Notes under the pieces: model-generated
Database searches by the model: none
Told to the model about the DNA's origin: nothing
The model's input: the letters and a program-made list of their open reading frames with translations, nothing else
Translations under genes and position numbers: made by a program
DNA from: an uncultured Nisaea sp.
GTDB lineage: Bacteria; Pseudomonadota; Alphaproteobacteria; Thalassobaculales; Thalassobaculaceae
NCBI RefSeq assembly: GCF_963974195.1
Contig: NZ_CAXBDC010000010.1
Location: forward strand, 3,097-67,096
DNA: 64,000 nt
Reading direction: 5' to 3'
Shown: positions 11,622 to 12,542 of the stretch, one piece after another
Layout of the letters: every line of letters starts with the position of its first letter
Numbering within the stretch: position 1 is the first letter of the stretch

Positions 11622-12542
11622 TCAGGTATTGCTGCCGACATCAAGTGTCCGGCCAATGGCCGTCGCGATCGGGCGCATTGCCTTCATCATGTCATCGAAT
11701 TCCGCGAAAGAACTCGCCTGAAGCGGGTCCACCGCCGCATTGCGCGGGTCCGGATGCACTTCCAGCATCAGTGCGTCAGCACCGGCGGCAACAGACGCCA
11801 GCATCATCGACTTGACCCAGGGCTGCCAGAATGTGGCGTGGGACGGGTCGGTCATCACCGGCAAGTGCGTGACTTCCTGAGCTGCCGGCACGACCTGGAG
11901 GTCGAGCAGAAACCGGGAGGTTGCCCGATGCGTATGCGGCGCCACGACACCGCGCTCGCACAGCACGATCCGCTGCTCGATGCCCAGCCGGTCATGCTCA
12001 AGCGCAATATATTCCGCCGCCATCAGCCAGTCCCGCAGCGAGGAACCATAACCGCGCTTCAGCATCACCGGCATGCCCGTCTTGCCGACCTCGGTCAGCA
12101 GCGGATAGTTCTGCATGTTCCGCGTGCCGATCTGCAGCATGTCGGCATGTTTGGCGACGATCTCGATCTTGTCGATTTCCATCACCTCGGTGACGATCGG
12201 CAGACCGGTTTCCTGCTTCGCGACGGTCAGCCATTTCAGGCCGTCTTCCCGGCTCTCGAAGAATTTCGGGCTGCGATAGGGGAAGCTCAGCGGCTTGAAA
12301 GCGCCGCCGCGCAGGAAGTGACCGCCCGCGGCTTTGATCGCCTTCGCGCTCTCGACGATCATCTCTTCGTTCTCGACCGTATTCGGGCCGGCCATGACCG
12401 GGATCAGCGGGCCTCCAATTTCAATACCGCCGCAGGTAAAGACCGTCTTGTGGTCAGGCGATTTCTTGGCGACGAGCGGGATCTTCCCCGCGATATCGTC
12501 TTCGGTCAGGTCCTTACCCGGGAATTTGTTCTCTACGGCCAT
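11622..12542 (-). CDS. Divergent class I-beta DAHP-synthase-like PEP aldolase (3-deoxy-ulosonate-phosphate synthase family)
   Basis: Aligns by eye with Thermotoga-type DAHPS: 'LRGGAFKP', 'MLQIGTRNMQNYPLL', 'MLKRG', 'VLCERG', 'DPSHA', 'LEVHPDP'. It carries 'GPNTVE' where DAHPS has GPCSVE, and 'KPLS' where DAHPS has KPRT. Confidence 0.85.
   Translation of the reverse strand: MAVENKFPGKDLTEDDIAGKIPLVAKKSPDHKTVFTCGGIEIGGPLIPVMAGPNTVENEEMIVESAKAIKAAGGHFLRGGAFKPLSFPYRSPKFFESREDGLKWLTVAKQETGLPIVTEVMEIDKIEIVAKHADMLQIGTRNMQNYPLLTEVGKTGMPVMLKRGYGSSLRDWLMAAEYIALEHDRLGIEQRIVLCERGVVAPHTHRATSRFLLDLQVVPAAQEVTHLPVMTDPSHATFWQPWVKSMMLASVAAGADALMLEVHPDPRNAAVDPLQASSFAEFDDMMKAMRPIATAIGRTLDVGSNT

Follow-up and report, generated by a model that had tools for sequence, protein, structure and literature searches.

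A probable PEP-dependent ulosonic acid synthase of type I-beta DAHP synthase descent, linked to CMP-sugar genes, in an uncultured Nisaea sp.

Introduction

Type I-beta 3-deoxy-D-arabino-heptulosonate 7-phosphate (DAHP) synthases, whose unregulated core forms are represented by the structures 1VS1 and 1ZCO and the core of 1RZM, share a superfamily with the synthases for the 8-phosphate of 3-deoxy-D-manno-octulosonate (KDO8P synthases), which occur as metallo (Aquifex aeolicus, 1FWW) and non-metallo forms (E. coli, 1D9E). In KDO8P synthases the exchange of a Cys for an Asn is the required switch to metal independence, and the His, Glu and Asp ligands are retained (PMC3052366). NeuB, PseI and LegI combine phosphoenolpyruvate (PEP) with an unphosphorylated N-acetylated hexose. 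The gene described here lies on the minus strand at positions 11622 to 12542 of a 64,000-nucleotide stretch of DNA from an uncultured Nisaea sp. (Thalassobaculaceae); the whole stretch is referred to as the window. According to its open reading frame (ORF), Pfam, alignments, an AlphaFold2 (AF2) model and a tree, the product of 306 amino acids (P0001) is a PEP aldolase with the fold of a DAHP synthase and belongs to the Asn54 subtype of a 'KPL(T/S)FPY / HTH' offshoot. It is probably a PEP-dependent synthase of an undescribed 3-deoxy-ulosonic acid, activated with cytidine monophosphate (CMP) and intended for the cell surface. The original prediction, made from the sequence of this gene, was a neofunctionalised PEP aldolase, and it is supported by the comparisons given below.

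With the type I-beta DAHP synthases the enzyme shares the (beta/alpha)8 fold, the Lys/Arg/Lys/Arg set of PEP ligands and the His/Glu/Asp ligands, and it is nested within that group. It differs from them in having Asn for Cys, Leu for Arg, Phe for Ser, a His-Thr-His stretch, a Phe-Trp pair and an N-terminal Lys-Asp, in being linked to CMP-sugar genes and not to aro genes, and in not being the DAHP synthase on which the genome relies. With the KDO8P synthases it has in common the superfamily and the occurrence of Cys and Asn forms in one clade, and under the proposed reading also the chemistry and the CMP activation of the product. However, it is only 23-25% identical to them, it lacks the K-x-x-x-D-K-A-N-R-S signature that the genome's own KdsA possesses, and its partner cytidylyltransferase is nearer to NeuA/PseF than to KdsB. 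The likeness of Asn54 to the metal-independent KDO8P synthases is therefore a resemblance in mechanism and not a sign of membership. The proposed logic is also like that of the NeuB family, with a free aldose, no phosphatase and a NeuA-type CMP synthetase. A weakly recognizable SAF domain is shared as well, but it is found on a separate gene and in Thalassobaculaceae-like genomes. The synthase differs from NeuB in belonging to another branch of the TIM-barrel PEP aldolases and in lacking a fused SAF domain. No description of the offshoot or of its gene cassette turned up in full-text searching of the literature.

Sequence and predicted structure of the synthase

The ORF was intact, began with ATG and coincided exactly with the positions given above. 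The Pfam model PF00793 (DAHP_synth_1) matched its product with an E-value of 1.3e-48 (165.7 bits). As originally predicted, the protein is a relative of the type I-beta DAHP synthases: in HMMER comparisons the closest solved structures were 1VS1 from Aeropyrum pernix (3.5e-64), 1ZCO from Pyrococcus furiosus and 1RZM from Thermotoga maritima, with E-values ranging from 3.5e-64 to 4.5e-53, and KDO8P synthases ranked behind them at about 1e-15. An AF2 model, calculated from an alignment of 35 sequences, had a predicted local distance difference test (pLDDT) score of 91.7, with two loops on the substrate side less confident. The best Foldseek match of this model was again 1VS1 (E-value 1e-31, TM score 0.92, 45% identity), and KDO8P synthases came next.

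The full-length type I-beta models of NCBIfam were all missed (PRK08673, 310.3 against a cut-off of 335; PRK13396, 266.8 against 486; PRK12595, 219 against 279). The KDO8P synthase models were far from being reached, with 80.9 bits against 314 for TIGR01362 and 79.2 against 242 for PRK05198. PF03102 (NeuB) matched residues 96-177 only, with 23.0 bits and a cut-off of 22.1. The protein ends after the barrel, and no C-terminal SAF domain is fused to it. In the public records of NCBI and JGI the synthase and every named homologue are called 3-deoxy-7-phosphoheptulonate synthase.

Active site residues

The HMMER alignments confirmed that the metal-ligand Cys of the GPCSVE motif, which is Cys31 in P. 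furiosus, is replaced by Asn54 (GPNTVE), and that the Arg of the KPR motif is replaced by Leu85 (KPLSFPY-RSP-KFF in place of KPRTSPYSFQG). Proper gapping restored neither the Cys nor the Arg. The other ligand blocks are kept, as had been claimed, with His235 in DPSH, Glu261 in EVHPDP and Asp272 in VDP. Lys83, Arg141, Lys162 and Arg197 aligned with P. furiosus Lys60, Arg115, Lys136 and Arg166, which we take to be PEP ligands, as in DAHP synthase structures. These PEP ligands and the His, Glu and Asp residues were invariant in two alignments of 35 and 18 sequences.

Further changes surround the remainder of the pocket. Phe87 stands in place of Ser. A three-residue insertion after Tyr89 carries Arg90, and a second three-residue insertion yields the invariant His203-Thr204-His205 in place of the canonical Arg-Thr-Phe. 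The sequence DPSHATFW, containing Phe238-Trp239, corresponds to the canonical DPSHxxG(R/K), and Lys10-Asp11 and Asp16 near the N terminus form a conserved K-D-x4-D motif. The exchanges of Arg for Leu85, Ser for Phe87, the loop Arg for His203 and Gly for Phe238, together with Trp239, appear to abolish the pocket for the phosphate group of erythrose 4-phosphate (E4P). As the residues on the aldose-phosphate side are now hydrophobic, aromatic or imidazole, the aldose would be a compound other than E4P.

Conservation and phylogeny of the offshoot

The closest homologues, about 120 in number, came from Nisaea, Thalassobaculum, Azospirillum and many metagenomic sources. GPNTVE was present in 100 of 121 close homologues and FKPL[TS]FPY in 118 of 121, while IGTRN, HTHR and DPSHATFW were nearly universal among the closest ones (65-98% identity). 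The residue changes are fixed in more than 100 homologues and are not due to chance. Asn-type members (41 sequences) were also compared with 126 canonical representatives chosen by their GPC and KPR motifs. Positions 54, 85, 87, 90, 96, 203, 205 and 238, among others, each reached at least 90% fixation in the offshoot, with another state fixed to at least 70% in the canonical enzymes, and positions 54, 85, 87, 203, 205 and 238 were each at least 84% fixed to a residue differing from that of the 126 representatives. Asn54 and Leu85 occurred in 100% of the Asn subtype; all 126 canonical representatives had Cys and Arg at these positions, for which motifs they had themselves been picked.

The hallmarks of the offshoot, all of which are present in P0001, are the replacement of the KPR Arg by Leu (in rare cases by Cys), Phe87, the His-Thr-His insert and the K-D-x4-D motif. 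An exhaustive search among representatives at 50% identity also revealed members with KPLTFPY and HTH that keep the Cys (P0132, P0137 and P0224); another representative, P0193, had the HTH but the motif KPCTFPY. Asn54 co-occurs with Arg206 (in HTHR) and Trp239, whereas in Cys-type members position 206 is Gln, Asn or Asp and position 239 is occupied by Lys or Gly-type residues. Arg90 was conserved in 100% of the Asn subtype; in Cys-type members this position was Gly or absent.

The phylogenetic placement that had been recommended for this protein was carried out as a quick maximum-likelihood search, rooted on the genome's own KdsA and with support values from the Shimodaira-Hasegawa-like approximate likelihood ratio test (SH-aLRT) only. 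All sequences without the KPR Arg formed a single clade of 19 rows (SH-aLRT 98), nested among canonical type I-beta DAHP synthases with Cys and Arg and far from KdsA. The sequences with both Asn and Leu, including P0001, formed a subclade of 15 rows within it (SH-aLRT 97). As the Asn subclade lies inside the Arg-less clade, the Arg was lost first, and the change from Cys to Asn arose later within the already diverged branch. The synthase is probably a re-specialized descendant of a type I-beta DAHP synthase.

Near homologues were present in 4 of 300 sampled alphaproteobacterial genomes; such a patchy distribution fits an accessory glycan trait and not a housekeeping function. A search for long, fused forms yielded 84 matches, all with at most 48% identity. 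No fusion of an offshoot member was found among the 83 long forms that were read; all of these were canonical KPR types or lacked the offshoot motifs, and most of the long-form DAHP synthases were joined to prephenate dehydratase, 3-phosphoshikimate 1-carboxyvinyltransferase (EPSP synthase), prephenate dehydrogenase or chorismate mutase. One candidate, an open frame of 1096 amino acids in genome G157, was rejected because it merely reflects the scarcity of stop codons in GC-rich DNA; counted from a start codon, the ORF encodes 375 amino acids.

Other PEP aldolases of the genome

The genome is 100% complete, and its assembly consists of 210 contigs. The original prediction had asked for separate DAHP and KDO8P synthase genes, and both were found. 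A class II DAHP synthase is encoded elsewhere in the genome (711 bits), so P0001 is not the DAHP synthase of the genome. A second PF00793 gene, adjoining pyrG, carries the KDO8P synthase signature (GPCAMES ... KSSYDKANRTS). This kdsA (contig C34; L001 1471-2343, minus strand) encodes an enzyme of the Cys (metallo) type and thus occurs in one genome with an Asn-type member of the DAHP synthase offshoot. A NeuB-type synthase is indeed absent from the window, and of the two neuB genes of the genome one is located on contig C58 and the other on contig C5. The genome yielded no KdsC-type phosphatase (TIGR01670), so that the presence or absence of a dedicated phosphatase carries no weight here.

Gene neighborhoods in other genomes

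The locus scan, for which one genome per species was taken, found 222 loci; 80 loci, all with intact frames, were kept, and 58 loci had enough flanking DNA for linkage to be counted within 8 kb. The loci belonged to Alphaproteobacteria (among them Pelagibacteraceae, SAR116, Roseibium and Insolitispirillum), Marinomonas, Denitromonas, SAR324, Methylomirabilota, Acidobacteria and others. A common gene cassette around the synthase is kept in Nisaea, Thalassobaculum, Azospirillum, Roseibium, SAR11, SAR116 and the gammaproteobacterium Marinomonas, and it also occurs in Denitromonas, SAR324, Methylomirabilota and Acidobacteria.

Of these 58 loci, 47 had a NeuA-like cytidylyltransferase gene within this distance of the synthase, 45 a gene for an AroE-like protein, 41 a gene for a glycosyltransferase (GT) family 2-like protein, 35 one for a degenerate transferase and 18 one for a small SAF-like protein. 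The AroE-like gene was almost always located directly 3' of the synthase gene. A Gfo/Idh/MocA oxidoreductase was encoded in 46 of the 80 loci, mostly directly 5' of the synthase. Dehydroquinate synthase and dehydroquinase did not occur as recurrent partners within the set of genes tested for linkage. In Thalassobaculum and in a metagenome-assembled genome of the Thalassobaculaceae the synthase is the first gene of an operon, followed by genes for the AroE-like protein, a protein of 167-180 amino acids, the GT2-like protein, a degenerate nucleotidyltransferase and a CTP_transf_3 protein, and then by a SIS or GT4 gene. A second Nisaea species possesses a minimal set of synthase, AroE-like and cytidylyltransferase genes. 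In locus L019, which belongs to another alphaproteobacterium, the GT2-like protein and the degenerate transferase are fused to one protein of 475 amino acids (7056-8483), which is followed by an AsnB-type amidotransferase. This fusion suggests that the GT2-like protein and the degenerate cytidylyltransferase work together.

Proposed function and alternatives

The synthase would still add C3 of PEP to an aldehyde, release phosphate and yield a 3-deoxy-2-ulosonic acid. The aldose is most likely a neutral, unphosphorylated sugar, as with NeuB-type synthases, and the analogy to non-metallo KDO8P synthases suggests that the Asn54 subtype works independently of metal. Two linked NAD(P) oxidoreductases, the Gfo/Idh/MocA and the AroE-like enzyme, would then tailor the product or its precursor by oxidizing and reducing ring hydroxyls; a pyranose ulosonate would resemble quinate, the type of ring bound by AroE-type enzymes. 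The linked NeuA-like cytidylyltransferase would convert the acid to a CMP-sugar, and the glycosyltransferases of the island, including those among the three genes predicted to be co-transcribed with the synthase, would transfer the sugar to a surface polysaccharide or protein.

Put together, these steps would describe a class of CMP-ulosonic acids that is neither Kdo nor NeuB-derived, for which a metal-independent synthase of DAHP synthase descent acts on an unphosphorylated aldose and an AroE-type enzyme then reshapes the quinate-like ring. The sugar would be common on the surface of abundant marine bacteria (SAR11, SAR116, SAR324 and Thalassobaculaceae) and would have been overlooked there, and in Nisaea it would be attached to a secreted or surface protein by glycosyltransferases linked to a tetratricopeptide repeat (TPR) protein. 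This combined picture is tentative and rather less likely than not.

If the proposed function is true, PEP-dependent ulosonic acid synthases arose a third time, from DAHP synthases, beside KdsA and NeuB, and the metal/non-metal switch between Cys and Asn arose again, independently of the KDO8P synthases. Owing to the public names, metabolic reconstructions credit Nisaea, Thalassobaculum, Azospirillum, SAR11 and others with an aromatic-pathway isozyme that is probably not there. Very abundant ocean bacteria would carry an acidic surface sugar that has so far gone unnoticed, with consequences for phage adsorption, grazing and dissolved organic matter. The offshoot is open to direct testing, as cultured type strains are found among its carriers, which include Nisaea denitrificans DSM 18348, Thalassobaculum litoreum DSM 18839, Azospirillum halopraeferens DSM 3675 and Marinomonas ostreistagni, and as the enzyme is small and appears to be soluble.

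Several observations weigh against the proposed function. The argument from the pocket depends on alignment and on remembered roles of DAHP synthase residues. The DAHP synthase domain model TIGR01361 was reached with a score of 271.7, just above its cut-off of 267.75. The Azospirillum halopraeferens gene has no cassette nearby, and in the Nisaea genome studied here the cassette parts are spread over 48 kb. Finally Arg90, five residues past the lost Arg, lies roughly at the place of the phosphate-binding Arg of KDO8P synthases and might serve a longer phosphorylated aldose.

The last point leads to the main alternative, in which the enzyme would join PEP to a phosphorylated aldose of five to seven carbons (arabinose 5-phosphate, a hexose 6-phosphate or a heptose 7-phosphate) in the manner of KDO8P synthases. 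The phosphate would be held by Arg90, Ser91 and Lys93 on the beta2-alpha2 loop, and CMP activation would be preceded by the action of a phosphatase whose gene lies elsewhere. The complete conservation of Arg90 in the Asn subtype, on an inserted stretch of this same loop, is consistent with this. In E. coli KDO8P synthase the phosphate-binding residues Arg63 and Ser64 are likewise situated several residues beyond the catalytic Lys, which counts in its favor. A gene for a SIS sugar-phosphate isomerase follows the cassette in L009 and L023 and is found near it in L040 and L045. However, SIS genes were linked in just 3 of the 80 loci, the conservation of Arg90 does not extend to the Cys-type members of the offshoot, no phosphatase was among the genes counted as recurrently linked, and the changed positions of the pocket became hydrophobic or aromatic. 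A phosphorylated substrate is therefore considered unlikely.

Even less likely is the synthase replacing LegI/NeuB in a route to legionaminic acid, using the 2,4-diacetamido-2,4,6-trideoxy-hexose formed by LegB, LegC and a 2-epimerase. LegC and the NeuC/LegG-type epimerase scored above their cut-offs and LegB scored near its own; these genes are the sole copies in the genome, the window is without a NeuB-type gene, and a 6-deoxy, N-acetylated sugar would fit the hydrophobic nature of the pocket. Nevertheless, the assembly is fragmented, and other contigs carry two NeuB-type synthases. The cassette recurs in many taxa without LegB, LegC or LegG among the linked genes counted, and its recurrent partners are oxidoreductases and not aminotransferases, which makes such a substitution very improbable.

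The name given by NCBI and JGI and the TIGR01361 score would agree with a divergent DAHP synthase isozyme or a DAHP synthase of secondary metabolism, with the AroE-like protein feeding a shikimate- or aminoshikimate-type pathway. The pairing of an AroE-family gene with the synthase in other genomes also fits. But both the Arg for the E4P phosphate and the metal-ligand Cys are replaced, the genome is served by its class II DAHP synthase, and the AroE-like gene scored below every AroE equivalog cut-off. Among the genes tested, the recurrent partners were cytidylyltransferase and GT-like genes, with neither dehydroquinate synthase nor dehydroquinase, and the aromatic-pathway fusions frequent in canonical forms were found in no offshoot member. 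There is little reason to expect an aromatic-pathway enzyme here.

A catalytically dead relic or a structural or regulatory subunit, as the loss of two canonical active-site residues might suggest, is extremely improbable, for the PEP-binding and His/Glu/Asp residues are invariant, the new residues are invariant across phyla, and none of the 80 loci kept has a broken frame.

Arrangement of the cassette in the window

All parts of the cassette are present in the window, where they occupy three sites. The same layout was common to the loci of the Nisaea denitrificans clade (L020-L022 and L048) and is therefore a rearrangement specific to this lineage.

The first site is a run of four genes on the minus strand, joined by 4-bp overlaps and one gap of 30 bp, with the synthase gene in the last position. 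It begins with a GT4 glycosyltransferase (15559-17229; Pfam Glycos_transf_1), followed by a TPR protein of about 600 amino acids (13751-15562; Pfam TPR), whose stop codon overlaps the next start, and by a GT-B glycosyltransferase with an EryCIII-like/GT28 C-terminal domain according to Pfam (12573-13754), which ends 30 bp 5' of the synthase. The GT4 and TPR genes were each linked to the synthase in 22 of the 58 loci. An orthologue of the GT-B gene (45% identity) directly precedes the synthase in L017, L039, L041-L044, L047 and the Nisaea denitrificans clade, and other genera also have the trio of GT4, TPR and GT genes in linkage with the cassette. On the 3' side of the synthase gene a strong hairpin followed by UUUCUU (11527-11560, minus strand), recognized by folding, is the probable intrinsic terminator of this operon. 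Its centroid structure had a free energy of -24.6 kcal/mol and a z-score of -3.8, and none of 200 shuffled sequences folded equally well. A scan for promoter and terminator consensus sequences gave nothing useful, and it missed this hairpin owing to the long loop. An ORF of 73 amino acids with one predicted hydrophobic helix (11336-11557, plus strand) converges on the synthase gene and ends within the hairpin, so that termination may take place there in either direction. Another GT4 glycosyltransferase, identified by Pfam and NCBIfam, is encoded 3' of the terminator (10210-11265, minus strand), so that, as had been noticed before, GT genes are located on both flanks of the synthase.

The second site consists of the Gfo/Idh/MocA oxidoreductase gene (33806-34921, minus strand; Pfam). 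It is an orthologue of the gene that mostly lies directly 5' of the synthase in other taxa. Its product is 47% identical to the copy in the cassette of L019, and the genome has no other close copy. Its closest relatives in the PDB were uncharacterized oxidoreductases first and then sugar and inositol dehydrogenases.

The third site is a tight operon on the plus strand (57270-60757) encoding the AroE-like and SAF-like proteins, the GT2-like protein and one degenerate and one intact cytidylyltransferase. The AroE-family (shikimate-dehydrogenase-like) dehydrogenase (57270-58145) was below all equivalog cut-offs of Pfam/NCBIfam and is 64% identical to the product of the gene 3' of the synthase in L007 and L009. 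The catalytic Lys of VPHK and the Asp of NTDG are kept, and the first Ser of the carboxylate-binding motif H-S-x-S-P is changed. As the PDB relatives of this protein include the 5-ketofructose reductase 7COK, the AroE family is not limited to shikimate, and its members can act on keto-sugars.

The next gene (58154-58711) encodes a protein of 185 amino acids, the C-terminal 55 residues or so of which resemble the C-terminal SAF domain of NeuB-type enzymes. The Pfam SAF model gave an E-value of 2.8e-4 (21.8 bits, cut-off 21), BLASTP matched residues 282-338 of the genome's own NeuB (E-value 3e-4), and hhalign gave an E-value of 8.8e-5 (probability 60%). The likeness to the NeuB-type SAF domain, seen at the level of sequence, is weak to moderate. 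In an AF2 model the N-terminal alpha/beta part was confident and the SAF part was poor, and Foldseek of this model against the PDB gave no significant match. The SAF-like protein was confined to Thalassobaculaceae-like cassettes and two other genera. A complex prediction for the synthase and the SAF-like protein had a score of 0.00, which speaks neither for nor against binding.

The GT2-like protein (58708-59388; Pfam) has S-x-H-C-[VI]-P in place of DxD, the metal/diphosphate motif of GT-A glycosyltransferases. Its SSH aligned opposite the DCD of chondroitin synthase, and S-x-H-C-[VI]-P was found in all 49 of 49 cassette copies (L020-L099). Judging from this motif, the protein may use a CMP-sugar, or it may not be a classical glycosyltransferase. 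The degenerate cytidylyltransferase-like protein (59385-60047), which had weak NTP_transf_3 and KdsB matches, has lost the PAR/GSKG loop for CTP ('IIPVYSGASS'), and this loss was common to all 9 orthologues tallied (at least 35% identity). The last gene (60044-60757) encodes a CTP_transf_3 protein of the NeuA/PseF type (Pfam, 85.5 bits) with an intact PARGGSKG loop, which is the candidate CMP-ulosonate synthetase. The PseF model matched it with 102 bits, below its cut-off, and NeuA enzymes were the nearest matches in the PDB. Together with a PseF-like gene at 29077-29793, the last two genes make up the three cytidylyltransferase-like genes originally counted in the window; the middle one is the degenerate one and falls below the Pfam cut-offs.

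Directly 5' of this operon, a patch of low GC content (0.46-0.51, compared with about 0.6) encodes a NACHT/STAND NTPase of 737 amino acids (54842-57055, minus strand). This may represent an insertion at the place where the cassette became divided.

Other genes in the window

The stretch from 24000 to 30000 has a low GC content (0.40-0.50) and encodes TPR proteins, an FkbM methyltransferase and the PseF-like cytidylyltransferase at 29077-29793. Adjoining it are the genes of an ABC/HlyD pair for type I secretion (21317-24484) and of an RTX protein (29847-31457).

Positions 41281-44691 (minus strand) hold the genes for a dehydratase of the LegB type, an aminotransferase of the LegC type and a hydrolysing 2-epimerase of the NeuC/LegG type. 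Within the same sugar island, positions 44733-47974 (minus strand) encode a LodA-like L-lysine epsilon-oxidase of 698 amino acids with LodA_N and LodA_C domains and, 3' of it, a flavoprotein-like protein with a weak Trp_halogenase match.

A split methionine synthase region is located on the minus strand at 3597-10102. It contains a metH gene without the homocysteine-binding domain, two separate S-methyl_trans genes, a gene for methylenetetrahydrofolate reductase (MTHFR) and a gene for an S-adenosylmethionine (SAM) methyltransferase fused to ArsR.

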